DNA of 64,000 nt from a phage (GCA_026066175.1 GCA_026066175.1_4721.2); one strand, 5' to 3'. Numbered from the stretch's first letter, positions 33,384-58,600 are shown. The notes: a model not told the origin generated them from the letters alone. Translations and numbers: made by a program.

Positions 33384-33414
33384 CCCTCTCCCAACCCGGA
33401 AGGGAAGGGAGAGG
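33384..33414. terminator. conserved GNRA-capped hairpin element, copy 5
   Basis: gcataaga-ccctctccc-aa-ccc-ggaa-ggg-aa-gggagagg, 6 nt downstream of the stop of 33420..34787; identical over ~39 nt to copy 7. Confidence 0.6.
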
Positions 33415-33419
33415 AAGTA

Positions 33420-34787
33420 TTAAACGGTTGGACGAACGGTGTTGTCTTTTTCCGGTGCAAGCCAGAGTGTGACGGTACCGTGGCAGGTCCATTGGGGTTC
33501 ACGTACAGAAGAACCCGCCATCGTAACAGCGCAATCGGTACGCATAACAACGCCGTAAGCTTCGCAAAGGTTATTGTCTTGCATCCAAACAACTTTAGCA
33601 GGCATGCCAGGATACAGTAAATCCATGTTGGCATGTTCCCATACCAACTGCATCGTTCGACCGCGTAACCCAGCAGTATTACTTAATTCCCGCCAACGGT
33701 TATCCGTTACCCGGCCCATCCCTTTTGCTACCTTCACGTTATCACTACGTTCTTCCGTCACATACTCGCTTACGTTCACGGTACGACTGATGATCGTATC
33801 ACCGCCCTTCGATAACGTCATTCCCTGGCTCATCTGACTCGCTGAAACAAAGCGTCCACCCGCATTACCTAACAATGAAGCTGCGTTGCTGATATCGCTG
33901 ACCGACGCACCTCGTGTACACGCGATCTCCACGTATTTGTCACGATTGATCCAGGTATTTTCCATGCCGGGAAACATATCGGCCGGATAATTGTAAAAAA
34001 TCGCCGTACGTCGACCGTCGGAGAAACGGGTTTCGTCATACAGAGGGTAGATATACAAATACGGTGATTGGTAATAGCAACCAACGTCCGCTGAATAAAT
34101 ACCGACCTGGTTCTGGATCTTATCAACAAGATCCATCGCGTTGGTACCATGAGGAAGAATCAATAACTTGAACAAATCATTGTTATTCGGTGCGACAATA
34201 TCAACACCCTGCATTTTGAAGCCGGTATCCGCTTCAACAGCAGAAAGGATTTTACTGAATTCGAGTCGCAGTACATCCAGAACTTTCGATCCAGTATAGT
34301 TCTCACCGGTTTCTGACTGCATGAAGCTTTCAAGAACAGGATCGAACAACTGGAATTGAAGATCGACCATCTGCTCGTAATCTTTCTTCGCAGAATCGGT
34401 TGCAGTACGTTCATCGGTTGCGGACATACGACTGTCTACGGTGGTTAAACAAACTGCCCGATAGACATAAGCTTGTGCGGCATCGTCTACGGTTTGGCGT
34501 TGTCCACGCATCAGACTGTACGCCTGCACGATGACGCGCATTTTAAGTTGTTGCTGGTACGGTAAAATGTATTTTCCGTAACTGCCCGGAGGGAACTTTA
34601 CAGAGATATAAAGTTCATCTCCTGCGTTACGTTCATAGTCTCGATACGTGTGGACTTGAGTCACTAAAGGAACAGACACCGTCATTGACGGCGTGATTAA
34701 TTCCGCGGTGACTTTATACGCAACAGCAACTGCTTCCTGCGCAAATGTACCGATATACCGTCCTAACGGCGTCTGTTTGTAATCCAT
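33420..34787 (-). CDS. hypothetical virion protein
   Basis: 455-aa ORF with ATG start, followed by the hairpin element. Confidence 0.65.
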   Translation of the reverse strand: MDYKQTPLGRYIGTFAQEAVAVAYKVTAELITPSMTVSVPLVTQVHTYRDYERNAGDELYISVKFPPGSYGKYILPYQQQLKMRVIVQAYSLMRGQRQTVDDAAQAYVYRAVCLTTVDSRMSATDERTATDSAKKDYEQMVDLQFQLFDPVLESFMQSETGENYTGSKVLDVLRLEFSKILSAVEADTGFKMQGVDIVAPNNNDLFKLLILPHGTNAMDLVDKIQNQVGIYSADVGCYYQSPYLYIYPLYDETRFSDGRRTAIFYNYPADMFPGMENTWINRDKYVEIACTRGASVSDISNAASLLGNAGGRFVSASQMSQGMTLSKGGDTIISRTVNVSEYVTEERSDNVKVAKGMGRVTDNRWRELSNTAGLRGRTMQLVWEHANMDLLYPGMPAKVVWMQDNNLCEAYGVVMRTDCAVTMAGSSVREPQWTCHGTVTLWLAPEKDNTVRPTV

Positions 34788-38636: not shown

Positions 38637-38682
38637 CGCAGATTCCTGTTTGAAAGATAAGATATCACATGATGGTCGACAG

Positions 38683-38716
38683 CATAAAGCCCACCCCGAA
38701 GGGCGGGCTGTTTATG
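38683..38716. terminator. hairpin cataa-agcccaccc-cgaa-gggcgggct-g-tttatg downstream of the 1127-aa gene
   Basis: 9-bp GC-rich stem (one mismatch) plus 5-bp A/T flanks that extend the stem, 9 nt after the stop at 38725; it has the same CATAA...TTATG flanks as the conserved element family. Confidence 0.5.
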
Positions 38717-38724
38717 CGTACGGA

Positions 38725-41700
38725 TTACTTGTAGGCACCGCAATGGGCTTTGATGAGGAAAAGCACCGCTTGCATCGGTTTATTGAACTGTTGCCATAAC
38801 GTTAATGCCGGATGGAACAGCCAATCTTCCAGGCCGAGAACAATACCGTAGTTAACGACATTATTAACATCGTTCTCAACGTTGAGTTCGCTATCCAGGA
38901 ATTTATCGATTGAACGCAGGGTCTGCATGGCGTTGTCAGCAATAAGCCAAGCTTCATGCGCTTCACGAGCCGCACGCAGCACTGCCTCCAGTTCGCTGAT
39001 AGTAGCTACCGGTAATTCCTCACTGGTGAGGTCGTCAGAAACCGTAAACTGGCGATTGATACCGGTGTAGATCCACTGCATCAGTTTCGCTGCTTCCTCG
39101 TTCGGGTTGTTACGCGTTGTCGCATAGGTCGCGCTCATCTTCACGATATGCGTTTCACCAAGATACGCTTTGGACCCAACGCCTTTACGATCGCTGTCTT
39201 TCCACGGTTGTACGGTAGCGACCATGAGCTTATCCCATTTCTGAATAGGAATACGCTTCAGACCAACAACCGATCCGGCCGATGTTTCGGACTGGTTGCT
39301 CTTCCGCACTTCGCTGAGCTCGCGATCGATAGCAACGATTAATTCACGCGTCATGTTACCAAGCATTTTGATTTCACCCAACGCAGCGATGAGCTTCTTC
39401 ACATCGGTAATAGGTTCACCACCGATGGTAAGATGACGGATGAAACGTTTCAGAATAATCCGTTCTGCTGCTGGGTTACCACGACGCGCTTTAGCCAACG
39501 CTTGCTGTGTTTCGGCGAACAGCTTATCCCATGGAGCCGTAGCGGCGGTATAGTAACGGTGGTTGGTTTCAATCCAGTTACCGATACGGTTGACCGCACT
39601 CTTAACGGTATCCATGAACCCTTCCATCGCAATTTCGGTGGCTTCGACGTTACCCTGGAAGTTATCAGGACCGATCTCACGCGCCGCCACCAGAATACCT
39701 TCCACCGCACTCACCGCATGCCGACCGATAGCCAGATTTCGCTGCGCTTCTTCAGCACGCTCAACGAATTCTACAACCGCAGGATCGTCAACGATTTCCG
39801 CCTCAGCAACAACACGAGTACCAGCATCGCCTTCCAGTGTCTCGATGGTGACAACCGGATCGTTTTCACCAGCAACATCCTGGTACTCTTCCTGTTTGAG
39901 ATCGCCGTTATCAGCCGCTGCGACAGCGGTGAGTATACGGACGGTAACATCACCGAGTTCTTTCGCAGCGAATCCGTAGACGGTACATGCTGTTGTCGCA
40001 AAGTTCATCAGTGTGCGCGTGCGTTTAACGATGTAACCAACATCGTAATCGTTGCCGCTCTTATCGATGTCGCGGATTAACCGTTCAGCTGTCTCCTGAA
40101 GCTGTGTAGCTGCTTTCAGAAGGTCTTCGTTAAACAGTTTCGTTGACGCATCGATCAGCATATCAACACTAACGTTAGACGGTACGGCATCATCCTGCTG
40201 TTTCATGGCGCTAAGTTCGTCACGGAACTTACGAATACCGTCTAAAGCGGCGTCGGCGCTATGTCCGAACGCGGCCACGCCAGACATTGTTGTTGCTGTC
40301 AGCATGTCCGTATCAGCGTTTGGACTTTCGCCTTCTTTAAGATCCTTCAGCTGGTCGAAGAACTTACGGGATGCTTCAGCGATACGTTTGCTGTCTTTGA
40401 CTGCGTTTACGATTTTATCAACCGATTTAGCATCGTTCGCAAGCAGCGTATCGAGTTTGTTCCATTCGACGTTGACTTTCTTTTCATCCGAAGTATTACT
40501 CGGCGGAGGAAGCAGTTTCATCACCGGTGCTGTGCGTTGTTCTTTGGTCAGCTTGTTGGCCTTCCCTTCGATTTTTTTCTTATTAACACCAAAGAGATTT
40601 TTCAAACGCGCCACGAGGGCTTTTAAGAACTTCGCGACCGCTTCGTAAACCGATTTCAGAATCTGTTTAAAGCGACCCGGCTGCTTTTCCCCGTCTTCCA
40701 GATTAAGATCGCTGTTCAGCGCGACATCAAGCTGTTTGTACGATTCCATGATGTATTCGTCTTTGATTTCAGGACGAATCTCGAAGCTTTCCATCGGACC
40801 TTCAGCCGGACGGAATTCCATTTTCAGTTCGCCTTGCAGAGTAGGGTCGACAATGGCGATCGCTTCACCCTGACCATCAGCGTTAAAGCGTTCAGCGTAA
40901 CGAGTACGGCGAACAATAACACTCTTATCCCCATCAAGACGACGTACCACCATGGTGCCAGGAATGTATGGTTGTTCTGTTTCAATGACGGTTACATCTG
41001 CCTCACCTTCGCCGAGAATAACCGATGCACGCTGTTCAACAACAGGAACATCTAATACGCCACGTGCTTCCAGCTCTTGATGAATTTCGAACGACTCTTG
41101 TTTCAGATCTTCATCTTCTTCGTTTTCGTCTTCATCACCGTCACCTTTGGTGTCTTCATTACCCTCGGTGGTTTTGGTGTCGGTAGCATCAGCGTCGGCG
41201 TCTGTGTTGGTAGGTTCTTCGGACGCGGGTTCGGTGGTGCTATCCTCGGTGGACGTTTCGTCGGCGTTATCGACGTCAACATCACCTTGCAGCTCCGTTT
41301 CTTGAGCAACGGCGTCGGCTTTCTGCTCACCAGTATTGCCGTCATTAGCGTCGACAACAGGTTGTTCGTCAGCGACGGTATCTTCAACCTTTTCTACTTT
41401 CTCCACAACACGTTTAATCACGGTGACTTTGATGGGTTCTTCCGTCGTTTTGGTTTCTGGCGTCGCCTCGGCTACCTCAGCTGCTGTTTCAGCAACAGGT
41501 TCTGCTTTTTCCGGTTCGACGACATTGCCTTTAACACCTTCGGTGGTTTCTGCAGGTTGCGTCGCCTGTTCGATTTGTGCCGGATTGGTTGGATCGATGG
41601 CGTTAGCCGCATCCTGAATCTTGTTCTTCAGGTTGTCACGGTCAGCGTTAACGGTCGGATCATTGGTCACTTTCGGTGCCGGTGTTTCGGTCGGTGCGTT

Positions 41701-42108
41701 TGCTGGATATGGGTTCTTCGGCTCTTCACCAGGTGCGGTCGGTACGGCGATCAGCACGAACGGCTGCACGTCGTTACCGTCTTCCATGGTAACGCCACCG
41801 TTGCTCGGTGTGAAACGAATTCGTAAACTACCATCGATAGGACGGGTCACAATAACAGCACGTACGACATCCTCGCCGTTCTCATCCGTGCTACGAATTA
41901 CGCGAACGGCATCATCAACAGTAGCCCCTTCCTCGAGCGTATCTGATTCGATCGTCGCTTCGATGCTGTCTGGCCGTGCCGCTGTAGGTAATGCGATCAC
42001 CTGCTCTTCTTTATCAGTAGAAAGCGTTGCTTTGACTTCGATCGGTGTATCGCCGCTTTCCAGGTTAAGATGCGACTTACGCATCAAATCAGCTAACGAT
42101 TTTTTCAT
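38725..42108 (-). CDS. large virion protein with long acidic low-complexity region and internal duplication
   Basis: 1127-aa ORF with SD gagga. Residues ~130-330 are T/E/D/A/P-rich (...TEDSTTEPASEEPTNTDADADATDTKTTEGNEDTKGDGDEDENEEDED...). Two related segments (VVRAVIVTRPIDGSLRIRFTPSNGG and MVVRRLDGDKSVIVRRTRYAERFNADG) flank the acidic region. Confidence 0.65.
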   Translation of the reverse strand: MKKSLADLMRKSHLNLESGDTPIEVKATLSTDKEEQVIALPTAARPDSIEATIESDTLEEGATVDDAVRVIRSTDENGEDVVRAVIVTRPIDGSLRIRFTPSNGGVTMEDGNDVQPFVLIAVPTAPGEEPKNPYPANAPTETPAPKVTNDPTVNADRDNLKNKIQDAANAIDPTNPAQIEQATQPAETTEGVKGNVVEPEKAEPVAETAAEVAEATPETKTTEEPIKVTVIKRVVEKVEKVEDTVADEQPVVDANDGNTGEQKADAVAQETELQGDVDVDNADETSTEDSTTEPASEEPTNTDADADATDTKTTEGNEDTKGDGDEDENEEDEDLKQESFEIHQELEARGVLDVPVVEQRASVILGEGEADVTVIETEQPYIPGTMVVRRLDGDKSVIVRRTRYAERFNADGQGEAIAIVDPTLQGELKMEFRPAEGPMESFEIRPEIKDEYIMESYKQLDVALNSDLNLEDGEKQPGRFKQILKSVYEAVAKFLKALVARLKNLFGVNKKKIEGKANKLTKEQRTAPVMKLLPPPSNTSDEKKVNVEWNKLDTLLANDAKSVDKIVNAVKDSKRIAEASRKFFDQLKDLKEGESPNADTDMLTATTMSGVAAFGHSADAALDGIRKFRDELSAMKQQDDAVPSNVSVDMLIDASTKLFNEDLLKAATQLQETAERLIRDIDKSGNDYDVGYIVKRTRTLMNFATTACTVYGFAAKELGDVTVRILTAVAAADNGDLKQEEYQDVAGENDPVVTIETLEGDAGTRVVAEAEIVDDPAVVEFVERAEEAQRNLAIGRHAVSAVEGILVAAREIGPDNFQGNVEATEIAMEGFMDTVKSAVNRIGNWIETNHRYYTAATAPWDKLFAETQQALAKARRGNPAAERIILKRFIRHLTIGGEPITDVKKLIAALGEIKMLGNMTRELIVAIDRELSEVRKSNQSETSAGSVVGLKRIPIQKWDKLMVATVQPWKDSDRKGVGSKAYLGETHIVKMSATYATTRNNPNEEAAKLMQWIYTGINRQFTVSDDLTSEELPVATISELEAVLRAAREAHEAWLIADNAMQTLRSIDKFLDSELNVENDVNNVVNYGIVLGLEDWLFHPALTLWQQFNKPMQAVLFLIKAHCGAYK

Positions 42109-42123
42109 AAAACGTTGTTCCTC

Positions 42124-43227
42124 TTAAAAGTAATATTTCAGCGCCTCGCGAGAGACGTCAAGCATAGCCGCCGTTGAGTTCGTGAAGAACTCGGCATAGC
42201 CCACAAGCGGCACCTTGATCCACGCGGTATACGCTGTAAGGTATCGAGAAAGGGCTACCATAGCATCATCAGAAGCTGTAATGGATAACTGACCTTGTTG
42301 ACGATACACATCGTTCAGTTTTGCTTGCAGGTTCCCTGCGATCTCAAGTAATTCGTTGGCGTACTTTTTACGATGGTACGTAATAAGCAGATCAACACCG
42401 GTATTTACCGATTCGAGTAAAACGCCAATCTGCTCCAACGACGGCATGGTTACAACCATATCACGCTCAACAGACACGACGTCCTGAACTTCAAATCGTG
42501 CTGATTGAATCGCGAGAGATTGTTGGATTGCTCCAGAACCCGTTGCGGTAACCTGATCAAGTCGTAGCATCCGGTTACCTAACAACGTCGTGTTAACCAG
42601 CCGCGATTCATTCAACGCACTGTACACCTTGTTCAACAGCGTGTGTGCATCACGATTAATCACATCGATTAATGCGGTATCCGTCTGTTTTAAGATGATG
42701 TCAAGCGCTCTGTCTAACGTGTTTGCGAACTGTTTGAAGTCATCACGGAACGACGTTGACAACAGGTATTCTGCGATCTTCAGGTTTTGTTTGTATAACG
42801 TGTTTCCGGTGGTGAAGTCGAACCCGAAACTGTTTCCATAACGCAAATGTGGTGCGAGCGTGGGTGAGGCTTCAAAACTTTGCGCGATGGGTTTATGTCC
42901 AACCGCTTTCGTGTATTGACGACGGATATTACTCAGCTCGATTTGCAACGCACGACTGCGGTCGATATACCGTGCGATGAAAGCAGTGATATTCCGCAAC
43001 GTTGTCCAAATCGCATCGATGATCGCTTTGATGATTTTCATCGCAAGCTGGTTGTATGATTCCAGGGTAAGGAGATCAGCGCTTTCTGTAGCATAACCGG
43101 TTGCCAGAGCGCCGCCCGCTTGCTGATAAATAAGCTGATGGATTTGTCGTTGTGTTGCCGTCTCAGGTAGAGGTAAGGTTTTTAACAAGCTTAAGGCTTG
43201 GATTTGTCCATCATTGGTCTGCAGCAT
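42124..43227 (-). CDS. virion protein, paralogue family C (head-internal/ejection-type protein candidate)
   Basis: The ATG at 43227 (MLQTNDGQ...) has SD gagga with an 8-nt spacer; the track start at 43290 would overlap the upstream gene by 80 nt. Shares the central A..A(L)..W....I helix region with 43211..48721 genes. Confidence 0.55.
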   Translation of the reverse strand: MLQTNDGQIQALSLLKTLPLPETATQRQIHQLIYQQAGGALATGYATESADLLTLESYNQLAMKIIKAIIDAIWTTLRNITAFIARYIDRSRALQIELSNIRRQYTKAVGHKPIAQSFEASPTLAPHLRYGNSFGFDFTTGNTLYKQNLKIAEYLLSTSFRDDFKQFANTLDRALDIILKQTDTALIDVINRDAHTLLNKVYSALNESRLVNTTLLGNRMLRLDQVTATGSGAIQQSLAIQSARFEVQDVVSVERDMVVTMPSLEQIGVLLESVNTGVDLLITYHRKKYANELLEIAGNLQAKLNDVYRQQGQLSITASDDAMVALSRYLTAYTAWIKVPLVGYAEFFTNSTAAMLDVSREALKYYF

Positions 43228-44512
43228 TGCGGGTTTCCTCAAGTTCGAGATGTGCATCAAGGTAATCGTTAAGACCATCGATGACGTCACAGACCGTTAA
43301 CAGGAATCGAGCAAAAGCAACGGCCTGGAAGCCAACGACATTACGAGCAATGCTAACACGTTGCACAATGGCGGTTGAAGCCGCTTGGTCATCGTAGATC
43401 TGATGCAACAAACGTTCGTAGGGCTGAATCCATTCATCTTGATCAGCGAGGCTTGCCTCAAGACAACGTTTAAATTCCAATTGACGTAGCGTTGACCATA
43501 AGGTGCTTAATGCGCCGATGATGGCGTTGGTTCCATCAAGAACATCGTTCAAGGGCAGGAAACGGAATCCGTCCTTCGCTGACTGGAAAGGAATGGCTTC
43601 CCATACAACGCTAAACTGTGCGCCAGTATAATCATCGACGTTCAGTACTTTTAACTGCGAAGCGCCAACCGGTGCGTTTATGATGACGTCATTGGTTTCA
43701 GTGTTCTCCAACGGCTTTTCACACAACGCGTCGTTGATCGCCTTAAGGATGTTTTCCCAACATGCCTCATTTTCAGCCGCGATGTTATCTTTGTTCTCCA
43801 ACACCGGTGCTTTTAATAACCGCATCAGTAACGGATCAAGCTGACGATGCCATGCCGCCAGTATCCCGGTATTTGTCATGATGTTTTCTGCGGTCTGTTG
43901 TAAATCCGCAACGCTGCTTACCGCACCGCCTCTTGGATGGAGATATCGCCAGTTATACGGGAAGTTCTCCCAGAAGGCATTATCTTCGTTAACCGTATAT
44001 GCAGGAAGATTTTTCAGTTTTACGGCTTTCTTCAGCAACGGTTTTACTTGACGCACAAAACGACGATAACTGCGGTTGCAAATATCAATGGCGTAGCGAT
44101 ACAACTCGTTCATGTAAAGCCATAACGCTCGGGTTGCCTCTTTCGCGGTTTTGTCAAAACTTTCCATGTTAAGACTCATCCCACCTGAGGTTTCCTCTTC
44201 CATCCCATCGATGATCTGATTGGGATCCATTCCCATCCCAGCCGCTGCGGTTGAAGCGATATGTTTGATGGTATTAATATCACGTTCTTCAACTTCGGTC
44301 ATGTTAGGGACAATATCTAACCGGAGTTTGTTTAATGTTTGAAGGTGTTGTTCACCTTCCTTCATGACGGTGTTCGTTTCATCGAGTGAGCGAAGCTGAT
44401 TTTCGATATTACCGACATCGAGGATGTTGCCAGCGACACCGAATGATTCTACAGGTTCATCATCTATCCCTTGAAACAACGCGGTCATGGGTTGTTGCAA
44501 CACGTTTTCCAT
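43211..44512 (-). CDS. virion protein, paralogue family C
   Basis: 433-aa ORF with SD aggag; DINTIKHIASTAAAGMGMDPNQ...TAKEATRALWLYMNEL aligns with DVALIRQIASTSAANLGMSDED...KERAAQALYAVWVTI in 44666..45958. Confidence 0.65.
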   Translation of the reverse strand: MENVLQQPMTALFQGIDDEPVESFGVAGNILDVGNIENQLRSLDETNTVMKEGEQHLQTLNKLRLDIVPNMTEVEERDINTIKHIASTAAAGMGMDPNQIIDGMEEETSGGMSLNMESFDKTAKEATRALWLYMNELYRYAIDICNRSYRRFVRQVKPLLKKAVKLKNLPAYTVNEDNAFWENFPYNWRYLHPRGGAVSSVADLQQTAENIMTNTGILAAWHRQLDPLLMRLLKAPVLENKDNIAAENEACWENILKAINDALCEKPLENTETNDVIINAPVGASQLKVLNVDDYTGAQFSVVWEAIPFQSAKDGFRFLPLNDVLDGTNAIIGALSTLWSTLRQLEFKRCLEASLADQDEWIQPYERLLHQIYDDQAASTAIVQRVSIARNVVGFQAVAFARFLLTVCDVIDGLNDYLDAHLELEETRNAADQ

Positions 44513-44568
44513 TTAGGACTCCTACGTAGGAAAGATCATGGTGGGTGATCATGTCCACCATTGTGCGC

Positions 44569-44591
44569 GGTATGGAGCGTGGCTCCATACC
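44569..44591 (-). promoter_or_regulatory. perfect 10-bp stem / 3-nt loop hairpin in the 5' leader of 43211..44512
   Basis: ggtatggagc-gtg-gctccatacc, about 60 nt upstream of the start codon. Confidence 0.4.
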
Positions 44592-44626
44592 CAAGTCAAA
44601 AGATAACCGGATATTAACGGCATATA

Positions 44627-44658
44627 CCCTCCTCCTTCCCTTCCGGGTTGGAGGAGGG
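44627..44658. terminator. conserved GNRA-capped hairpin element, copy 6 (canonical sequence on the minus strand)
   Basis: Plus strand reads ccctcctcc-tt-ccc-ttcc-ggg-tt-ggaggaggg, the reverse complement of the canonical element; 8 nt downstream of the stop of 44666..45958. Confidence 0.6.
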
Positions 44659-44665
44659 ATTTAGC

Positions 44666-45958
44666 TTATTTTGCTTTCTCGGTTACCGCGTTGAAGTATT
44701 TCGCTGCAGCAAATACCGCCTCCGCATACTGACGGACAGAGGCACGGAGGATCTTGGTTCCTAATACCGAGCTTAAACGAGCCATTTCTGTTACAGCCGC
44801 GATATAAGGACGTACGGTTTCACGATCGGCCTCAGGTAACTTGTCGAGCATTTCGCCCCACTTCGTTTTGATTTTCATTCCGTTGAGTTTAGCATCTCGT
44901 CCTACAGTGCTTGCCAAACTTTCAACTTTATGCAAATATGTCGGCTCCACCCTATGGAATGCCTTCAGATATGCCGTCAATGCGCTTTTCAGCTCATTCC
45001 CATCGTGGAAAATATTCACATTTTCGATATTATCTGTTACGGTGTCAACAACTTCGATATGAACATCCTTCACCAAAGCACATGCTTTAATGACATCTTT
45101 CTCTTTTTCTAACGCATCCAGCCCTTTAACGACATATTGTTTTCCGCCGCTTTCTGGAAGTCTGAACGCTCTCAGCGCAGCTTTAGTGGTCTGAAGATAC
45201 TTATCTAGAACACTATCGAGCGTTGTTAAATCAGTTAGGACATTGATGTCGTAGTTGATGTCACCGATCATAGTAAATAGGAAATCTGACGTCGCCGCAC
45301 TTGCAGCTAATTGTTCGATATGTTTGCTAACGGATGTTGCATTAACCGATTTTGCGTTCGGGAACATATTAACCATATTCCCGGTAGGCTTCTCTAGCTG
45401 CTTGATCTGACGTTCCCCTTTATTGACTTCGGATGCGATTTTGGTGATCTCAGCATAAGCCAGAACGAGATTCTTGAAAAGCGTCTGGAGCAACTTAAAC
45501 AATTGTTCAGCAATATTCGCGATGGTGACCCAGACCGCATACAGTGCTTGCGCTGCACGTTCCTTGAAGCCTTCCAGCACGATAGCTTGGCCTTCGACTA
45601 ACTTATCATTAGCCTGGAACATGTCTTCATCAGACATACCCAGGTTAGCTGCCGATGTTGATGCGATTTGGCGGATAAGCGCAACGTCGCTGGCGCGGGC
45701 TTCTGTGATCGTTGATGCGATTACGTAGGCGGTATCTTCCAACGTTGCTGATGTCCGTACAGCGATTTCAGCCAGTTCGCTGTTCTCGTCGATGCTGTCG
45801 TCGGTATGTCGAATCACCAACTCAACTTCATCTTCCTCAATTTCTGCGTTGGGGTCTTGTTGCTCGGGTGAAATCGATGCAAGAACATCTTCAGCGCTGA
45901 GTAGTGCGAGTTCAAAAGCGTTTTTATTGATGTTATCAAAAAGAGAAATACGGGCCAT
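44666..45958 (-). CDS. virion protein, paralogue family C
   Basis: 430-aa ORF with SD aaggaa; acidic N-terminal region (PEQQDPNAEIEEDEVELV...) followed by the conserved family core. Confidence 0.65.
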   Translation of the reverse strand: MARISLFDNINKNAFELALLSAEDVLASISPEQQDPNAEIEEDEVELVIRHTDDSIDENSELAEIAVRTSATLEDTAYVIASTITEARASDVALIRQIASTSAANLGMSDEDMFQANDKLVEGQAIVLEGFKERAAQALYAVWVTIANIAEQLFKLLQTLFKNLVLAYAEITKIASEVNKGERQIKQLEKPTGNMVNMFPNAKSVNATSVSKHIEQLAASAATSDFLFTMIGDINYDINVLTDLTTLDSVLDKYLQTTKAALRAFRLPESGGKQYVVKGLDALEKEKDVIKACALVKDVHIEVVDTVTDNIENVNIFHDGNELKSALTAYLKAFHRVEPTYLHKVESLASTVGRDAKLNGMKIKTKWGEMLDKLPEADRETVRPYIAAVTEMARLSSVLGTKILRASVRQYAEAVFAAAKYFNAVTEKAK

Positions 45959-45967
45959 GTGGGTTCC

Positions 45968-47287
45968 TTAACCTTTAGTATAGGCTTTAACGAGGGTGTT
46001 AATAAAAGAAGTTAATGCACGAAGGTACTGATAAGCGAATTGGTTTTCAATACGTTGCTCTTTACTGCAGAGCATGATCGCCCGTTTCACCAGTTTGGGA
46101 TATATTTCAACGTACGGTTTATAACTGTCGTCGTATTGCTGCGTATCGAATTTTTTCATGGCTTCATACTGCAGCTTTTCCATCTGACGAACACGAGCAC
46201 GATCGAAGATCTTGGAGAACGCACGTCCGCGTTGGGTGATCGCAATCAGATCTTTCGCTAACGAAAGCGGTTTAACGCTACGGAAATCATCCGGTGTGGG
46301 TAGCGTGTAGTTTTCTGGATCGCTATCCCATTCGGTCGCTGCGTCTTCAACCACGACATCCAATTTCAGATAATTTTCAATCGCGGCAAGAACGTTGTCT
46401 TTTGCCGCATTGAATTCTTTTAAGAACACAGCAGCATTAACATAACGAATACGTTTACCAGAAACCGCCGGTGTAACCACATCACTCCCGTCAACGGAAC
46501 CTCTGTTCTCCAATGCGGTTTTCAGTGTATCCAGAAACGACATGTAGTCCACAGGAAGTTGGTCAACACGATCTAAACGAAAATCGAATGTCTTCACACC
46601 AAGACCGGTGGTAAGGTCGTAACGTGCACCGCCTGCCATGATTCGGTTATAGTTCTCAAGGTTCTTCTTGATTTCGTCAACACCACCGACATGATTGCGA
46701 TTGGAAAAGAGGATACGCCAACCGGCTTTGAACGGCACGGTAACCGTTTCTTCTTTACCTTTCGGAAGTTTTTCTAACGCTTTGATCGCATTCTGGAAAT
46801 TGCGGGTTTCATCATAGATGATCCGCGTTAATCCTTCCAGGACAGCAGCCAGTTGCAGAACAATATCAACAATGATATCCCAGATCTTTTTCAACGCTCG
46901 AACGACGGTGTCTTTGAACCCTTCAACAACCAACGCTTCACCCACGGTGATGTTGTCAGTAGGACGAAGCATTGCATCGGAAGGCAGACCTAAAGCGATT
47001 GAGGCGGATTCTTGAACGTTACGTACCAATGCAACGTCGCTGTAGTTAGCCGTCTCAATCGTTGGTGCAACATCAAAACTGATTTCTCGTAATGCTTCAA
47101 CAGCAGGGAAAGCACGATCGAGCGCCTCTTCATGTTCATCGATGTTCGCTAAACGGAGTTCAACCCCATCAGCGTCAATGACTTCGGTGGTAGGCTCTGC
47201 TGCAAGCGCCTCGGCAACGATGGGATCCTTCTCAAAAGCTTCAAGGCTAATATCGCCTTGTGTAGCAAATAGTGGTATACGTACCAT
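45968..47287 (-). CDS. virion protein, paralogue family C
   Basis: The ATG at 47287 (MVRIPLFATQGDISLEAF...) is preceded by tggaga; the track start at 47311 is a TTG with no SD. Collinear with 44666..45958 (RI(S/P)LF...DVAL(I/V)R...EGFK(E/D)). Confidence 0.65.
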   Translation of the reverse strand: MVRIPLFATQGDISLEAFEKDPIVAEALAAEPTTEVIDADGVELRLANIDEHEEALDRAFPAVEALREISFDVAPTIETANYSDVALVRNVQESASIALGLPSDAMLRPTDNITVGEALVVEGFKDTVVRALKKIWDIIVDIVLQLAAVLEGLTRIIYDETRNFQNAIKALEKLPKGKEETVTVPFKAGWRILFSNRNHVGGVDEIKKNLENYNRIMAGGARYDLTTGLGVKTFDFRLDRVDQLPVDYMSFLDTLKTALENRGSVDGSDVVTPAVSGKRIRYVNAAVFLKEFNAAKDNVLAAIENYLKLDVVVEDAATEWDSDPENYTLPTPDDFRSVKPLSLAKDLIAITQRGRAFSKIFDRARVRQMEKLQYEAMKKFDTQQYDDSYKPYVEIYPKLVKRAIMLCSKEQRIENQFAYQYLRALTSFINTLVKAYTKG

Positions 47288-47335
47288 GTGATGTCTCCAG
47301 TAATAATTCAAAAGATAAATCAGCGCAGCATAAGA

Positions 47336-47367
47336 CCCTCTCCCAACCCGGAAGGGAAGGGAGAGGG
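47336..47367. terminator. conserved GNRA-capped hairpin element, copy 7
   Basis: gcataaga-ccctctccc-aa-ccc-ggaa-ggg-aa-gggagaggg-aatatg, 23 nt downstream of the stop of 47390..48721. Confidence 0.6.
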
Positions 47368-47389
47368 AATATGTCAGTTTACTAACTGA

Positions 47390-48721
47390 TTATTTCTGTG
47401 CTGCGTCAGCCGGTTTTTCAGCCGCCTGGCCGCTGTACTCTTTCAGCATTTTAGCAACGCCGTCCAGTACTGCGTTACCCGCCTGAACACCGTACTTCAT
47501 CAGGCTAACCTGCGGGTTGATGTAGCAAGAACGTGCGTCTTTCAGTGCAGACAGCACAGTTTTAACACGCTGTTTCTCTTGAGCAGAAACTTCGCCTTTC
47601 TTAGCCAGTTCAGCTTCCATATCGTCGCCGAATTTAACAGCGTCTTTGAAGCCCTGGGATTTCTTACCGATGTTACCTTTCGCAGCCAGCAGTTTATCGG
47701 CCAGCGCTTCAACGCTGTTGATCACCGCAGCCATCTGGTTCGGGGACAGTACATCGGCTTCCTGTTCCATCACGGTGATTGCGTTATTGCCGCGTTCCCA
47801 GGTCACTTTACCGTCGGTGGTTTTGAATCCCCAACCGTTCGGACCTTTCACATCAGCGATCGCAGGCGCGTTCAGTTTGTCGGTGTACTCAGTATGTGAT
47901 TTAGACTTAACGAGTTCAACGAATTTATCCGCACGATCGTCAGCCGCCTTCATTGCTTTCTCGAAGGTATCTGCGATTTTGCTTGATGCACCAGCGATAT
48001 CGATATCGCCAATATAACCGGTAACAGTGGTGCCCAGTTTAACTTTCGCGTTCTTCGGAGAGCCTTTACGTTTGGCGATCATTTCTTTCAGTTTAGCCGC
48101 ACGTGCTTTCAGTTTGGTTGCACCGTCGAAGATACGATCGATGAACTTCACGAAGTTGTCCCAGGTGGATTTCAGGAAGTTCTTAATTGCAGTCCACAGT
48201 TTCTGCCACCATTTCTGTTCTTCCAGGAAGATCATGTTGGTTGCATCATAACGGGAAGCGGAACCGCCGAAGCTTTCGAAGGAAGGCATGGTTTCCGGCA
48301 GTTTGAAGCCGATAGTACCACACAGACGTTTCAGATTACGCATGTGTTCTTGCGCGGTCTGTGCAGACATACCACCGTCTTTCAGATAGCTTTCGGTCGC
48401 AACAACGGTTTCCGTCATTTCGTCCATGGCTTCGTCCATGGCTTCAGCGGTTTCGTCGTCTTTTGCGATTTCGATAACAACAGCATCAACCTGCTCGATG
48501 TCACCACGGACTTCGATAGCCAGTTCGGTTTCAGCAGCGGTGTCTTCAGCGATTTCAGCACGTTCGGTCAGTTCAGCCACAACGGTTTCATCGCCTGCAG
48601 CAGCATCGGCTGCCGGTTCTGCTTCAACGGTTGCCGCAGCTTCCGGATCGATCTCAGCAGCCAGTTGAACCAGCTGTGCGTTAGATGGATTTGCGACAAG
48701 ACGATCAAAAATAGAAGGCAT
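47390..48721 (-). CDS. abundant virion protein, paralogue family C, with acidic AxE-rich N-terminal region (propeptide-like)
   Basis: 443-aa ORF with SD taaagga; strongly optimised codon usage; N-terminal ~100 aa are acidic and alanine-rich with many A-x-E triplets (AAEIDPEAAATVEAEPAADAAAGDETVVAELTERAEIAEDTAAETELAIE...). Confidence 0.65.
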   Translation of the reverse strand: MPSIFDRLVANPSNAQLVQLAAEIDPEAAATVEAEPAADAAAGDETVVAELTERAEIAEDTAAETELAIEVRGDIEQVDAVVIEIAKDDETAEAMDEAMDEMTETVVATESYLKDGGMSAQTAQEHMRNLKRLCGTIGFKLPETMPSFESFGGSASRYDATNMIFLEEQKWWQKLWTAIKNFLKSTWDNFVKFIDRIFDGATKLKARAAKLKEMIAKRKGSPKNAKVKLGTTVTGYIGDIDIAGASSKIADTFEKAMKAADDRADKFVELVKSKSHTEYTDKLNAPAIADVKGPNGWGFKTTDGKVTWERGNNAITVMEQEADVLSPNQMAAVINSVEALADKLLAAKGNIGKKSQGFKDAVKFGDDMEAELAKKGEVSAQEKQRVKTVLSALKDARSCYINPQVSLMKYGVQAGNAVLDGVAKMLKEYSGQAAEKPADAAQK

Positions 48722-48764
48722 AATTTTGTTTCCTTTACAATAAATTGCACATTAGCTAATGCGG

Positions 48765-48791
48765 CTTAAGCAAGGCTAAAGCTTGCTTAAA
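48765..48791. terminator. hairpin cttaagcaag-gctaaag-cttgcttaa overlapping the stop codon of 48787..49317
   Basis: 9-bp inverted repeat with a 7-nt loop, lying between the stop of the 176-aa gene and the start of the highly expressed 47390..48721 gene. Confidence 0.4.
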
Positions 48792-49317
48792 AGCCCTTAA
48801 AACCCGGTGCCATAGGTTGCCCAAACACCGCATTTAAAGTACATATGATGTCCTGGATGCCATTGTCCCAATGGAGCCAAGTACGCACCATCTCTTCGTC
48901 TGACAACGTGATATAACTCATAAGTTTACCGCTGCTTTCCAGACGTTGGTGTGAACTTAACGACTGACGATCTGACCAGTTATCGATCAGCTGTCCTGCA
49001 ATCTGAACGTTCGTGTCCCGTCGACCCGTGTGAATGAACCGTAATGTATCACGGATAAACTCCAGGCTCGCGAAGTTCAGGTTGGGGTTATGGCTGTTCA
49101 TTTCCACCCAATCGGTGATGGGGTACATCAAACGATAAAGGGTAGAAAGTACCTGACGTTCATATTTCCAGTCATCCAGAGGAGTACCATCGACCAGACG
49201 CTGATACAAACTTACCACGTCACGGTCGTAGTTCTCCTGCCGCTTTACACCGTTAACCGGGAAACCAAAGAACCCAGTACCGTATAAAGTTAAAGGTACG
49301 TCACGGAGTGCACTCAT
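48787..49317 (-). CDS. hypothetical protein
   Basis: 176-aa ORF; ATGA start/stop overlap with the upstream gene. Confidence 0.6.
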   Translation of the reverse strand: MSALRDVPLTLYGTGFFGFPVNGVKRQENYDRDVVSLYQRLVDGTPLDDWKYERQVLSTLYRLMYPITDWVEMNSHNPNLNFASLEFIRDTLRFIHTGRRDTNVQIAGQLIDNWSDRQSLSSHQRLESSGKLMSYITLSDEEMVRTWLHWDNGIQDIICTLNAVFGQPMAPGFKGF

Positions 49318-50213
49318 ACAGCCGCCTCTTCTTTTCGTTTGATGTTGTAACGAAGTGTCTTCAGACGGTCTTCATGATATTCGATCTGTTGTTGGATCTT
49401 CGGATCGTTACCCGCGTTCTGTTGCTGTTGCTTCAACGAAAGAATCCAGTATTCCAGCGCTTGCGCTTCTTCTTTAGCCACCTGTAATGCGGCTTCTTCT
49501 TTCTCGCTACGATAGATGCGGAAACGATAAATCCATGAGTTGGTCATCTGTGGGTTCCACATCCCCAGACGCATCGGGTCGGTATTACCTGCGTTGTATA
49601 ATCCGTTACCCACACCGTCTTCATCAGAAACGATGACGTCAGGGATTTTATCCAGACCGGCAAGGATCTGTTGTTTCTGCCCACACAACACTTCGGTAGC
49701 GGTGGCGAAACCGTACATATTCGCTGTCAGGTAAGCGATGTCGTTTTTGGTGAAGAATTCACCAAGGGCTTTATCCCCACCAGGCATACTTTCACAGATG
49801 ATTGTTGCGCGTAGCAGTGTACGAGCATAGCCGACGTAGAAACTCAAAGATTCAACAAGACGTACCAACGCGGCTTCTTTGAAGCTCAACCCGTCAGCGG
49901 CAACATCGATCTCCAGGTTTTTATTCACACGTTTAACGATTTCTGGAATCAGATCAACCGCGTTACGTAACGCGAGATGAACGTTTTCAACCCAGCTGCC
50001 AGAACGCACACGTGTTAAACGTTGATGGAGGTCTTTATCCGCCAGTTTCCATAAGGCGCTTTCCCCTTTCTGAAGAAGGGGTGCGGATGTTTCGTAGTAA
50101 GGGATGGCGGTGTTGCTGATTTCGTCGCGAATCGACTCCAGTGCGTCAGCAACGCCGTTGCGTTTAAACAGCGGTTTTAAACCGCGAATGAATTCTTTAA
50201 AATCGATCGCCAT
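49314..50213 (-). CDS. hypothetical protein
   Basis: 299-aa ORF with ATG start. Confidence 0.6.
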   Translation of the reverse strand: MAIDFKEFIRGLKPLFKRNGVADALESIRDEISNTAIPYYETSAPLLQKGESALWKLADKDLHQRLTRVRSGSWVENVHLALRNAVDLIPEIVKRVNKNLEIDVAADGLSFKEAALVRLVESLSFYVGYARTLLRATIICESMPGGDKALGEFFTKNDIAYLTANMYGFATATEVLCGQKQQILAGLDKIPDVIVSDEDGVGNGLYNAGNTDPMRLGMWNPQMTNSWIYRFRIYRSEKEEAALQVAKEEAQALEYWILSLKQQQQNAGNDPKIQQQIEYHEDRLKTLRYNIKRKEEAAV

Positions 50214-50251
50214 GGATAAGCACCTATGCTATTTCAAAACGGTTTTGTATA

Positions 50252-51358
50252 TCAACGGATCTGTGGGATGTTTCCGGTGCGTAAAGCCTGAAGAATCGCC
50301 AACAAATCGGAACCTGAGGTTGAAGAACTGTTGGCTTTCTCCAGCTGTTTGAAGCTGACGGTGGTTCCCTGATCCATGCTGTGGAAATAGAAGGTCGCCA
50401 TCTCTTCTGCTTCATCGATGATGATCAGCTGCATCGCAAGGGCTTCAGCCATGACTTTCTGACGCACGCTGTAATCCGATAAACGACGTCCGATCTTACG
50501 CTCGATGGCTTCTTGGTTAGCCTTAGAGATGATATAGGTGGAGGCGATGGCTCCAGAAGAAGGGATCTTTGTGCTGGCTGCGGCTTTTGCTGCGTTGATA
50601 CGCGCCGCGTTAACCGCTTTGCGAATACCTTCTTTATCCATACGCGAAATGCGTTTATGCTCACGAACCAGATCACTCAACAGAATGATGTCACTCCAGA
50701 AGGACAGTTCACCCGCCATCATGCGATGCCAGCGTGCACGCCAGGTGTTCTGTGGGCCACCAATCGCGAGAATAGAGGCGAGCACTTCTGCTGGGGAGCT
50801 TGCGATACGCATGCTGATGTTCAACGGCATTTTCATCGTGGCCTGACCATCGGTCAACGTAACCGTCAGGAACTTCCCGGTCACCGCGTTCGCATCTTTG
50901 TTCAGCATTTCAATGGCGGCATCGCTAGCACCGACATCAAGGCTATTTTTCTGTTTTCCTTGTAAGTTAAAGCCTTTCTCATCAAGGAAGACAAGACTTT
51001 TGCTATCCGCGCTTTCGAATGCGATTTTTGCGGCTTTACCGAACAGATCGGCGTTACGATTTGGGTTAACACGACCCAGGGTTTTATCCACGCTGATGTT
51101 ACCGACCTGCATGATGGTATTCAACGCCAACAGATAAAAACCGGTATACATGTTTTCGGCGGTACGCATGCAGTTGCCTAACGCATTGCGTGCGTCGCTG
51201 TAGTACAGTTCACGTTCGAAAATAAGCGGAGCAATGACACGTGACGGTTGCGAGAGTTCAACCAGCGAACCCGGCTGGATAAGTTTATTGACTTCGTAGA
51301 CTTTAGCGATACCGGACGCAACAACGTTAACGGCGTCGGCAATTTCTGATGCTACCAT
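50252..51358 (-). CDS. hypothetical protein
   Basis: 368-aa ORF; SD aaggat; only 35 bp separate its start from the divergent plus-strand gene. Confidence 0.6.
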   Translation of the reverse strand: MVASEIADAVNVVASGIAKVYEVNKLIQPGSLVELSQPSRVIAPLIFERELYYSDARNALGNCMRTAENMYTGFYLLALNTIMQVGNISVDKTLGRVNPNRNADLFGKAAKIAFESADSKSLVFLDEKGFNLQGKQKNSLDVGASDAAIEMLNKDANAVTGKFLTVTLTDGQATMKMPLNISMRIASSPAEVLASILAIGGPQNTWRARWHRMMAGELSFWSDIILLSDLVREHKRISRMDKEGIRKAVNAARINAAKAAASTKIPSSGAIASTYIISKANQEAIERKIGRRLSDYSVRQKVMAEALAMQLIIIDEAEEMATFYFHSMDQGTTVSFKQLEKANSSSTSGSDLLAILQALRTGNIPQIR

Positions 51359-55596: not shown

Positions 55597-55616
55597 AACA
55601 AATAGCGCAAACATAA

Positions 55617-55648
55617 CCCTCCTCCAACCCGTAAGGGAAGGAGGAGGG
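55617..55648. terminator. conserved GNRA-capped hairpin element, copy 8
   Basis: acataa-ccctcctcc-aa-ccc-gtaa-ggg-aa-ggaggaggg-aatatg between convergent stops (55596 and 55658); identical to copy 1 over ~40 nt. Confidence 0.6.
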
Positions 55649-55657
55649 AATATGCTG

Positions 55658-58600
55658 TTATCTTACGTTATTGCTATTCTGCTGTTCACTGAACCAACCA
55701 TAGACTTTGAGATCGGTACCGTATCTCAGTGCAAGGTATGCGTTCATCGCAGCACAGAACAACGTCGCGTAGTGCCATAAGAGCTCAACATCCATGTCAT
55801 CGGGAGTCTTGGTAAAACCAGCACCTGGTACAAAGCGTGACGGTTCATGCATGAACGTGCGGTACCAGTCGTGCTGTTGTTGTTTCGTCGTGAAATCACG
55901 GTGTGGTTCTAACGCTTCTCTTGCAAGACGACGATACTCGAGAAGATGGTGATTAGCCCGATTATTGCGAGGGTAACTGACTTCGTAGTTAGGATCGACA
56001 GCTTGGCATAGCGCTGTTGAGTCTAATAACTCGATGGCTTTGACTAACTTATCGCTCGCGTTGGTGATGAGCGCCGATCTGTAATACTCGATCGAATTAG
56101 CAAGTTGCGAATAGAAGTCATCTAAGGCATCTGGATTTGATACCTGCAGATCAAGACCTAATGTCCACGGATAGCTGCTTTCATCATTGAGTTGCGGTAC
56201 GACACCCAGGAGATGTTGGCAGATAGCTGCGTGATTATTGAACTGATCGTGGAAAATAGCTCGTGCAACTTCAATCGCATGATGATAACTCAAACGCCGT
56301 TCCTGACGTGTCGTCCTAAATGAGTTAACGGCGAGCAGTCCCGCGGTAGCCGCGCAAACATCAGTGTCGTTGACGTTGTTAAGCACATAGTTACTAAGCT
56401 GGAAAGATTCTTGCTTCAACGTTCCATTGGTCGCCGTTGCTTCGCTATTCGCTTTATCAACGATGGTGCTTAGCGCGTTAATATAACGTTTAGCGCGAAC
56501 TTCCAACCACTGTGCGATCCCAAGCACATCCACAGCCGCTTTAGCAAGGTCACGTGCGTTCACGATTTCGTTCTTCAATGCACCCAGCCCTTTATTTTCA
56601 GGTGAGGAGGCTTGTTGTCGAATCATGCTGTTCAACATGGTAAGCAGGTTATCCAGCTCGTGTCCGCTGACCTTGTTACGTGCGTCAGTAATCGGCCCTT
56701 GCAGGAATTTACGACAACCGTCATTATACCGAATCAGTTTATCCACGTCGATGGATTCGTTCGCGGTTTCCTTGAACTGATTCTTTAATTCTTCACGGTA
56801 GTCGTGTATCTCGCTTGTAAGATTATCAACGGTGATACCATTGTGACCAAGAAGAACTTTACTGAAGTTGCCCTTCTCGAACGCCAGTGCGATGCCTTCA
56901 CGAATCTTAGCCAGCTTATCCTGATCTAACTCACGACCGTTTGACAGTTCTTTCACTTCAGCGCTGATTATTGCTGCAACTGTTCCAAGGTTATCGGTAA
57001 CCCCTTTGAACGTGCTTGACCAAACACTTCCCGCTTCAGCGTATTTTGCGATGGTCTGGATACCGACGCTATGTAGCGACGCTAAACGTTTCTTCGTACC
57101 TTCGGTAAGCAATGCATCTTTAGCTCGCGTAAGTTGACTGTTATTGGCTTCCGCTTGCTGGATGGCCGCTTTCGCATTCCCGTTACGCCAGCTCTTAACC
57201 AACCAATCGACTAAACGTTTCAGGATATTGATGGTATATTCCATCGTACGTCGTAACGTTTCCCACGCGCTTTCAGCGGTATAGATCCCACCAACAGTGT
57301 ACCCTTCCATCTTCAGCGCTTTGGTATCGGTTTGACGTGCCAACCATTCTACCGTCGCAGAACAAACGTTTACGAACGCCTCCAGGTAGTTGTAATAGGC
57401 CTCTGTTGCGGAGGTTTCGTTGAGCTTGGAATGCAGATAAAACTGTTCGTATAGCTCGTCGTCATCACCGAAGGCGTCGTAGTTCCACAGTTCGGTATCG
57501 CAGCCGGTACCACAGAAGACATCCGCCGTTGTAAACTCCTTAAGTGCTTTCGTTGCGTCGTTGGTCAGGAATTTACCTGTCTCAAGTACGTCGTCAACAT
57601 TAAGTCTCGGGAGTTCGTCAGTAATTGGGTTTTCCAGCATCAACGTATTGAAGAACACGCTGTACTTGTATCCAAGCCATTTTGGATAACTGTTTTCAGA
57701 TATCGTAGACGCCGGTTTGATTTTCTTGGCTTCAGCCAACGTGTCTTCTGCAACCTGATATTGGTTTTCCCCAGCTTTGATACGTCGTAATGCTTTTTCT
57801 TCCAACTGTTTGAGTTTGGTGTGCCGTGCTTGAGCTGGAGCCTCAACCAGTTTTTGTACCGACCGCATGGCGGAAATCGCTTCTTTCAATGTGGTGATCG
57901 GCATACGAACTTTACCGTCATCGAAACTCAGCGCGCGAGCAATACGTCGACTTACAACAGGTTCGGTATGGATGTTTCTTTCTACCCACGATTTGTTTGC
58001 GTAGGTTTGCGTGATTTGCTGCTGGATCTTTTCAAGATAGCCCCAGCTTTTGGATGCTTTGCCGTCCAAAAGCGGATTAGGTCCTTTCTTATCAAAAAGC
58101 TTTTTGATAGGATCAAAGAAACCTTCTTGCACGAGATCGATACGGGTGTAACCATCAGCTGCTTCGATTTCTTCTTGGGTTTTATCCCAGAAGTCGTCGC
58201 TCTTTGCAGCAACCGCTGTATCTTTAATGTCCAGGATGATCTGACCCACCGTTTGCGCAAACAGCAAGGCCGCACGTACCGATTGTGCGAACATCCGCTG
58301 ATATTTGATTCGAACGCATTGCATCTGGGTTAGCAGATTCAGTTGCGCGATCCCATCCAAGGTGCTATCTTGAGCAAGTCCTTCAGCCTTAGCGATAACC
58401 TGTTTTACACGTTCAGCGACATCAACGTATTGCTGGCATACATCCCGCAGAATACGTGCTGCGAAGACCCCGGTACCGATATAGTTCAACAGGTCTTTTA
58501 ATGACCATTCAGACGGACAATCGGCTGGTGCGGTAGGGAGTAAGCAACCATCACCGTCCATGAATCGCTCTAATGCGCTAATATCCTGATTTTCTACGCT

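Follow-up and report, generated by a model that had tools for sequence, protein, structure and literature searches.

A stretch of phage DNA of 64,000 nucleotides (nt) (GCA_026066175.1_4721.2; hereafter the window, with positions counted from its first letter) carries a run of related genes on its minus strand, which we consider to be the internal-head and ejection-protein operon block of a Goslar-type chimallivirus, composed of six diverged paralogues of the Pfam family PF12699 (probability about 0.85). Across 96% of its length, the region matches Escherichia phage vB_EcoM_Goslar (Goslar), a nucleus-forming jumbo phage (Chimalliviridae), at 80.3% nt identity, and the source phage is a Goslar-like nucleus-forming jumbo phage. 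PF12699 (phiKZ_IP, "phiKZ-like phage internal head proteins") has a model length of 387 and a gathering score of 27 bits. The original prediction had likened five of the genes to the internal head or ejection proteins of phages of the phiKZ and SPN3US type. This identity was borne out by the PF12699 matches, by the position of the genes after homologues of gp89, gp90 and gp91, and by the presence of their Goslar orthologues in virions.

Five open reading frames (ORFs) encoding proteins of approximately 370–450 amino acids (aa) had been predicted, and all five were found at their coordinates on the minus strand. They are designated here A to E and have lengths of 367, 433, 430, 439 and 443 aa, respectively. 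The five genes are real, but the array does not end with them: the adjoining gene F, whose C-terminal part matches PF12699 (E-value 8.6e-6), makes it an array of six. The genes are as follows, in their order of E, D, C, B, A and F, which corresponds to Goslar gp58 to gp53.

47390..48721, minus strand: E, major PF12699 internal head / ejection protein of 443 aa, orthologous to Goslar gp58, with phiKZ gp93 as its counterpart
45968..47287, minus strand: D, borderline PF12699 paralogue of 439 aa, orthologue of Goslar gp57
44666..45958, minus strand: C, paralogue of 430 aa, orthologue of Goslar gp56
43211..44512, minus strand: B, paralogue of 433 aa, orthologue of Goslar gp55
42124..43227, minus strand: A, most divergent paralogue, of 367 aa, orthologue of Goslar gp54
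38725..42108, minus strand: F, sixth member, of 1127 aa, orthologous to Goslar gp53 and matching phiKZ gp97 in position

The amino acid identities to the Goslar orthologues are 97% (96.6%) for F, 92% for A, 85% for B, 74% for C, 71% for D and 86% for E. The equivalents of A–E in the Goslar record (Goslar_00054–00058) are each annotated as "hypothetical protein". In F, a very acidic N-terminal part of approximately 340 aa is followed by a middle region and then, C-terminally, by the PF12699 core at approximately residues 815–1057 (window positions 38938–39666). No internal duplication was detected in F, in which the sole match was a trivial overlap of segments.

Membership in PF12699 is firm for E, which scored 69.9 bits and was the only member above the gathering score; E also matched PHROG 5750, "internal head protein" (1.5e-8). 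D (26.7 bits, E-value 4e-6) falls just under the cutoff and the C-terminal 347 aa of F reached 25.6 bits, and the two are therefore borderline members judged from their profile scores. Most of the 438–439-aa orthologues of D carry a precomputed PF12699.14 annotation, which is absent from the C-type orthologues. C had no direct Pfam match and is placed in the family indirectly, through its BLASTP match to D (5e-19). B is also placed indirectly, through P0034, a protein that scores 28.6 bits on PF12699; an exhaustive HMMER search of 1.84 billion representative proteins with B brought up this protein (phmmer 1.6e-25) and no other remote homologue. A is a probable member. Its sequence scored 20.0 bits (E-value 4.4e-4), below the cutoff, and was aligned to positions 92–384 of the 387 in the model; PF12699 was its sole Pfam match at an E-value of 0.1 or less. 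Three orthologues of A scored 18.9–20.8 bits, and the orthologue P0002 (91% identical to A) has a precomputed PF12699.14 annotation.

The relationships among the members were also investigated directly. BLASTP linked B with C (1e-6) and with D (7e-7), and in this pairwise comparison A and E matched no other member. Alignments of shallow orthologue profiles with hhalign gave probabilities of 98% for C–D, 91% for B–C and 80% for B–D; in the same orthologue-only comparison, A, E and F were linked neither to each other nor to single phiKZ or SPN3US sequences. Word-indexed protein searches with A and B returned only orthologues of 86–100% identity, and a tblastn search of 50,697 phage records with E returned only Goslar and one weak match in a Pseudomonas phage. 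The conserved core that had been proposed for the whole array therefore holds in sequence for B, C and D, while A and E are joined to them only by the PF12699 profile. The proposed DVAL[IV]R...EGFK motif is present in C and D and degenerate in B, and it is not array-wide. The tryptophan-containing part of the core fared better, since a Trp-containing helix directly follows a conserved x-x-E-[S/G]-[F/Y] junction in all of the proteins.

The AlphaFold2 model of B has an overall predicted local distance difference test score (pLDDT) of 61.8 and a predicted template modelling score (pTM) of 0.67. Residues 1–120 were of low confidence, and the confident fold, a helix-rich core with pLDDT values of 70–90, starts at the predicted junction. 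A Foldseek search of predicted viral structures (BFVD) with this model gave 56 matches at E-values of 1e-3 or less. The named matches all belong to phiKZ-like jumbo phages (201phi2-1, PhiPA3, Noxifer, Psa21, PhiEaH1, RP12 and Vibrio pTD1/VP4B), and those with annotations are virion structural or internal head proteins. The model of A (pLDDT 37) was not used. In Goslar, AlphaFold3 models were reported to contain the PF12699 fold in all six proteins, gp53–gp58 (bioRxiv 10.64898/2026.04.21.720040). The PF12699 hits, the links among B, C and D, and the fold matches of B therefore support a single family of six members, in which the combined evidence for D, B and F is good.

The location of the block points to the same family. 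The array lies directly downstream of homologues of gp89, gp90 and gp91, and divergent gp88- and gp87-like genes are found beyond the gp89-like gene. The three nearest genes are as follows.

48787-49317, minus strand: gp91-like vertex-binding protein (PF25618 PhiKZ_gp91, 2.1e-46)
49314-50213, minus strand: gp90-like gene, upstream of E
50252-51358, minus strand: gp89-like gene, orthologue of Goslar_00061, which is noted in the Goslar record as a match to phiKZ ORF089

The anchor genes upstream of E matched PHROGs 3187 and 3239. The annotation notes of Goslar list Goslar_00061–00063 as matches to phiKZ ORF089, ORF088 and ORF087, and this gene order is common to phiKZ (gp87–gp91 followed by gp92–gp97) and SPN3US (gp48–gp52 followed by gp53–gp54). 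The Goslar preprint likewise describes synteny of its locus with phiKZ gp92–97.

The extreme codon optimisation that had been noticed in 47390..48721 was confirmed. E has a frequency of optimal codons (Fop) of 0.80 and an effective number of codons (Nc) of 32.7, essentially equal to the values of the major capsid protein gene (25015-27237, minus strand; Fop 0.84, Nc 30.9), and it is by far the most codon-biased of the 43 window genes beside the capsid gene. The window means are 0.55 (standard deviation 0.06) for Fop and 48 for Nc, and the other five paralogues have Fop values of 0.48–0.60; Fop was computed with an assumed set of Escherichia coli optimal codons. E also has a good Shine-Dalgarno sequence. 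Liquid chromatography–tandem mass spectrometry of purified Goslar virions detected all six orthologues, with approximate copy numbers of 2,150 for gp58, 330 for gp53, 70 for gp54, 50 for gp55, 60 for gp56 and 50 for gp57 (bioRxiv 10.64898/2026.04.21.720040). The codon bias of E relative to the other paralogues agrees with the approximately 40-fold gap in abundance measured in Goslar. Microscopy has shown that a fusion of Goslar gp58 to superfolder green fluorescent protein (gp58-sfGFP) is packaged and injected, and that it stays with the injected DNA and the early-infection (EPI) vesicle. In phiKZ, gp92, gp93, gp95 and gp97 are injected, and several PF12699 members (orf92, 93, 96, 162 and 163) tolerate transposon insertions.

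The prohead protease of these phages (phiKZ gp175 and SPN3US gp245, S80-type) cuts after Glu in S/A/G-x-E or A-x-E motifs. All six proteins of the array contain a conserved junction, x-x-E followed by [S/G][F/Y], with a conserved Trp 14–22 residues later. The junctions are listed below, with a slash marking the predicted cleavage position.

A: TLE56/SY, short and non-acidic N-region of 56 aa, predicted body of 311 aa
B: NME117/SF, N-region at residues 1 to approximately 120 with low model confidence, predicted body of 316 aa
C: VLE129/GF, N-region at residues 1–129, predicted body of 301 aa
D: VVE122/GF, N-region at residues 1–122, predicted body of 317 aa
E: SFE149/SF, acidic N-region at residues 1–149, predicted helical body of 294 aa
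F: AME829/GF, preceding the C-terminal PF12699 core, predicted body of 298 aa

These positions coincide with the mapped SPN3US sites AQE125/GW in gp53 and AQE124/SY and ARE137/SL in gp54, and the predicted mature bodies of 294–317 aa are comparable with the 300 and 295 aa measured in SPN3US. The SPN3US gp53 and gp54 propeptides have 125 and 137 residues and are themselves cut at several sites. In phiKZ gp93–97, a [V/I]-S-x-E junction is located 279–306 aa from the C-terminus. Cleavage in phiKZ detaches the helix-rich domains; these probably make up the internal mass, and they are injected. On this analogy, we infer that the proteins of the present phage may be processed proteolytically at the junction. 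The position before the scissile bond (P1) is Glu in six of six junctions, and the residues at P3 are T, N, V, V, S and A in A–F, respectively. A T-F-E cleavage site has been reported in 201phi2-1.

The N-termini had been described as acidic and dense in A-x-E triplets. The acidity stands for B, C, D and E, in which the net charge is −8 to −15 per 50 aa, and it does not extend to A (−1, +1). The density of triplets did not withstand comparison with composition-preserving shuffles, since the [S/A/G]-x-E counts match those expected from an Ala/Glu-rich composition (observed 10 versus expected 10.4 in E, 7 versus 8.4 in C, 3 versus 6.3 in B, and 6 versus 3.2 in A, P=0.08). D alone was nominally enriched (11 versus 6.3, P=0.03).

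Peptides of the Goslar proteins listed in Table S4 of the Goslar preprint were compared with the positions of the junctions. This comparison covers the part of the listing that ends with peptides beginning ELK, whereas the predicted new N-termini begin with S or G; the presences and absences given here apply to the peptides listed in that part. In the capsid protein, which served as a control, none of three N-region peptides was found and the first core peptide, DMMPYSVVFNVK, was present; the N-region peptide strings were taken from the window sequence, and a sequence difference in Goslar could give false negatives. For gp57, none of three N-region peptides was found, and core peptides were present with areas of 2,600–33,300. 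For gp56, the one N-region peptide was absent and a core peptide had an area of 31,600. The gp58 N-region peptides 55–72 and 115–128 were present, with individual areas of 5–9 thousand, which together amount to approximately 0.2% of the protein area of 10.8 million, while good core peptides of the paralogues reach approximately 10% of the area of their own protein. Within the part covered, these data suggest that the N-regions are depleted in the orthologues of C, D and E (gp56–gp58).

The capsid protein itself has GCE150/S and SEE153/L just ahead of the first ordered residue (approximately 158) in the Goslar cryo-electron microscopy (cryo-EM) map. The data, including the peptides from the part of the listing described above, are consistent with removal of an N-terminal segment of approximately 150 residues by the prohead protease.

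From these comparisons, a working model can be proposed. By analogy with phiKZ and SPN3US, each protein would be made late and use its N-terminal region to enter the prohead. Cleavage after Glu by the S80-type prohead protease would then divide the N-region from the helix-rich body of approximately 300 aa, and the freed helical bodies would fill the head together with DNA and, on ejection, pass with it into the early-infection vesicle. N-terminal segments of phiKZ gp93 and gp162 remain behind as cement on the inner face of the capsid. E would be the bulk component, with capsid-level codon use, a good ribosome binding site and its own hairpin terminator downstream, and the other five would be low-copy variants encoded in two compact units flanked by hairpins, D-C and B-A-F. 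Neither the micrographs of Goslar nor its C1 map showed density for an inner body, and symmetry expansion brought none to light (bioRxiv 10.64898/2026.04.21.720040). We therefore refer to A–F as PF12699 head / ejection proteins and not as inner-body components.

The missing density is one of several results that weigh against this model or parts of it. The membership of A depends on a Pfam score below the threshold, the P3 residues of A–D (T, N, V, V) are outside the published S/A/G set, the cleavage motifs are not enriched beyond composition except nominally in D, and a prohead protease gene was not found within the window, although homologues of the protease are present in 280 phage records, four of which are Escherichia phage records. 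Among the Goslar peptides of the listed part, the trace gp58 N-region peptides span AAE64, AIE70 and AQE125 uncut, and an N-region peptide of gp55 (52–62) was detected. A gp53 peptide across AME829/GF was intact, and with a peptide coverage of 63% in Goslar virions, F is largely retained; within these data, F is at least partly uncut at its junction. The acidic N-regions might accordingly be kept and the proteins packaged at full length, as DNA counter-ions or spacers or as anchors on the capsid wall. The gp58, gp55 and gp53 peptides, the lack of enrichment of canonical motifs, and the observation that the N-region of E is more constrained than its body (ratio of nonsynonymous to synonymous divergence, dN/dS, 0.06 versus 0.22, in a single pairwise comparison with Goslar) favor such retention. 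It is also favored by the phiKZ capsid structure determined by cryo-EM, in which N-terminal segments of gp93 (residues 14–84) and gp162 (residues 19–134) stay on the inner wall and bridge hexamers. However, the areas of the gp58 N-region peptides are very small compared with those of core peptides, the gp57 N-region peptides were all absent from the listed part though core peptides were seen, and the capsid-protein control shows the pattern of a processed protein. The homologues in phiKZ and SPN3US are cleaved experimentally. We consider general retention of the N-regions unlikely. It is still less probable, in our estimation very improbable, that the array is not one family and that A, possibly with C, is an unrelated helical protein whose weak matches to the profile are artefacts of coiled coils or of composition. 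The score of A (20 bits, with a threshold of 27), its lack of BLAST or hhalign links to other members, its N-terminus, which is not acidic, its unusable model, and the lack of any Pfam match for C would fit this explanation. However, the match of A to PF12699 is its only one, extends over nearly the full model length and recurs in three orthologues, and an orthologue 91% identical to A is annotated as PF12699.14. Like the other members, A also carries the junction motif with its Trp helix, and its body has 311 aa; C matches D strongly, and the PF12699 fold was reported for both Goslar gp54 and gp56 (bioRxiv 10.64898/2026.04.21.720040).

A different function for part of the array deserves more weight than either of these, though it is still doubtful. 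A–D, and perhaps F, could be capsid-lining vertex proteins present at approximately five per non-portal vertex (55 per virion), akin to phiKZ gp86 and Goslar gp65, with only E as bulk ejected cargo. The approximately 50–70 copies of gp54–57 are close to the 55 of the vertex-complex proteins, and the Goslar map has unassigned helical-bundle density beside gp65, the gp86 homologue. However, the copy-number estimates are rough, the model of B is only of moderate confidence, and the low- or mid-copy phiKZ paralogues gp92, gp95 and gp97 are injected. The gp86-type proteins (phiKZ gp86, SPN3US gp47 and Goslar gp65; PF25617) differ from the array proteins in belonging to a separate Pfam family and in being fixed at the vertices in 55 copies, and hhalign found no link between them and A–F. 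A broader proposal, to which we give about the same low credence, would join these points: the PF12699 body and gp86 may form one superfamily, with A–D lining the vertices, only E as bulk cargo, and a protease that takes T, N or V at P3. If it is true, the superfamily would share the junction (Glu, then a small and a hydrophobic or aromatic residue, with the Trp helix) and a mature module of approximately 300 aa, A–D would explain the unassigned density by gp65, and the protease specificity would be broader than S/A/G-x-E. The internal-head and ejection-protein reading of the whole array is preferred here, and the comparisons below are made on that basis.

Goslar gp53–gp58 are one-to-one orthologues of the six proteins, with gene order, strand and hairpin positions all preserved, and the dominant virion member, gp58, is the orthologue of the codon-optimised E. 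The nt identity between the two phages is approximately 80% and unevenly spread: divergence is strong in the bodies of C and D and much weaker in F and, to a smaller degree, in E. The phiKZ proteins gp92–gp97, together with gp162 and gp163, belong to the same Pfam family, and the tandem genes occupy the same place after gp89–gp91. In both phages the last member is long (816 aa in gp97 and 1127 aa in F), and a junction ending in Glu lies approximately 280–306 aa from the C-terminus. Proteolysis is documented for most of the eight phiKZ proteins, and injection for several. Unlike the Goslar type, which has one dominant member, phiKZ has several members at approximately 100–200 copies. Its junction, [V/I]-S-x-E followed by [D/E/S], differs from the x-x-E followed by [S/G][F/Y] with variable P3 found here, and an inner body has been reported for phiKZ, whereas none was seen in Goslar.

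SPN3US gp53 and gp54 (paralog family A, ejection proteins) are also PF12699 proteins of high copy number, whose maturation sites precede the Trp helix at the equivalent junction and leave mature bodies of 295–300 aa. However, SPN3US has only these two members, each at more than 600 copies and with a strict A-x-E motif, and their N-terminal 15 aa are identical, for which there is no equivalent here. The T4 proteins IPI–III and Alt are alike in their working, with N-terminal targeting, cleavage after Glu by the prohead protease and ejection with DNA (PMC5694885), but they have no homology to the present proteins, and their targeting sequences are approximately 10–20 aa long, compared with 56–149 aa or more here. 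An array of five had been regarded as unusually large. Even the six members found here do not exceed the known range, because phiKZ has eight (gp92–97, 162 and 163; six in tandem) and phiPA3 has seven, while SPN3US has two.

The six genes are closely packed. The gap between D and C is 9 nt, the last 17 nt of B are also the first 17 of A, and the gap between A and F is 15 nt. Three hairpins, found by RNA folding and lacking U-tracts, lie at the boundaries.

47335..47378, minus strand: GC-rich palindromic hairpin, putative terminator, directly after the E stop codon; folding energy −25.9 kcal/mol
44625..44668, minus strand: second, nearly identical hairpin copy, which overlaps the C stop codon (44666-44668) and extends just downstream
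38681..38724, minus strand: different strong hairpin at the end of the B-A-F unit, directly after the F stop codon; folding energy −25.3 kcal/mol

The hairpins after E and after C are each followed by TATG and then by the 11-mer TTATCTTTTGA, which has no other exact copy in the window. Goslar and two metagenomic relatives (L002 and L004) retain the two hairpins together with the motif behind them, with a compensatory change in the stem, and the Goslar record has putative transcriptional terminators at the equivalent positions after gp56 and gp53. A scan for consensus sigma-70 promoters and intrinsic terminators gave nothing above the shuffle expectation. From the packing and the hairpins we infer three expression units, one ending with E, one with D and C, and one with B, A and F. 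The hairpins may terminate transcription, and the TATG may mark a late promoter, an idea suggested by work on phiKZ promoters.

The hairpins after E and C, here delimited as 47325-47378 and 44617-44668, are part of a recurrent intergenic family in the window, with the form CATA-CCCTCYYCC-NN-CCC-(4-nt loop)-GGG-NN-GGRRGAGGG-TATG. Further copies are located at approximately 9333-9376, 18443-18494, 24883-24926, 29679-29724, 33373-33426 and 55611-55654, and others are at 38675-38724 and 59267-59320. They fold with −22 to −30 kcal/mol, mostly without a U-tract, and the major capsid gene has a variant copy immediately downstream of it. In some hairpins, the inner segment appears flipped between orthologous sites (AA..CCC..GGG..AA versus TT..CCC..GGG..TT). 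The members of this family are probably the bidirectional terminators of the phage.

Divergence from Goslar is distributed unevenly. Amino acid identity to the Goslar orthologues is 88–97% in the N-regions of C, D and E and 65–82% in their bodies (65–69% in C and D). Synonymous divergence (dS) in C and D is 0.8–1.2 in the N-regions and above 2 or saturated in the bodies. Values of 0.11 were obtained for the F C-terminus, 0.35 for the gp91-like gene and 0.2–0.5 for E, and along 38725-51358, dS against Goslar (L001) varies more than 10-fold. Selection was considered as the cause of the conserved N-regions. For C, however, the difference mostly reflects divergence time, since dS rises too and dN/dS is 0.09 in both the N-region and the body; in D, dS of the core is saturated and the ratio is not computable. 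Only E differs in dN/dS. The pattern in C and D is therefore attributed to mosaic divergence and not to different selection, because dS rises in parallel with amino acid divergence. These sequence comparisons point to mosaic ancestry, or to recombination, with the low-copy paralogues at its centre. The constraint on the N-region of E, in the single pairwise comparison given above, fits a need to match the conserved capsid lattice.

Another difference from Goslar lies outside the array. An ORF at 55658-59263 (minus strand), which has no Pfam match, encodes 1201 aa, compared with 930 aa in its positional Goslar equivalent, Goslar_00064; the present phage would thus have gained approximately 270 aa by an insertion, or have a fused gene.

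A stop-free ORF of 774 aa (24916-27240, plus strand) lies antisense to the major capsid gene. It has an odd composition and no family match, and it is almost certainly a by-product of the extreme codon bias of the capsid gene. Near-identical relatives of B, C and D (P0003–P0033 and P0035–P0154) are found on 236–250-kb contigs of enterobacterial assemblies labelled E. coli (including O157), Salmonella enterica, Shigella sonnei and S. flexneri; at least one more match bears the label Enterobacter hormaechei. Goslar-type jumbo phages thus seem to be common passengers, in a carrier state or as contamination, in the sequencing of enterobacterial isolates.

The family, its tandem paralogy, variable copy number, proteolysis and injection have already been published, and the Goslar genes were characterised in 2026. 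In this context, the array mainly confirms that a reader working from the sequence alone can recognise jumbo-phage internal head protein arrays. The analysis adds to the published work the junction motif with its uniform module of approximately 300 aa, a tentative connection in structure with gp86, the vertex protein whose structure is solved, an operon arrangement of three units with conserved hairpins, and a mosaic divergence concentrated in the C and D bodies. These additions could help in the design of decisive proteomic and cryo-EM experiments on the internal head proteins of this family.

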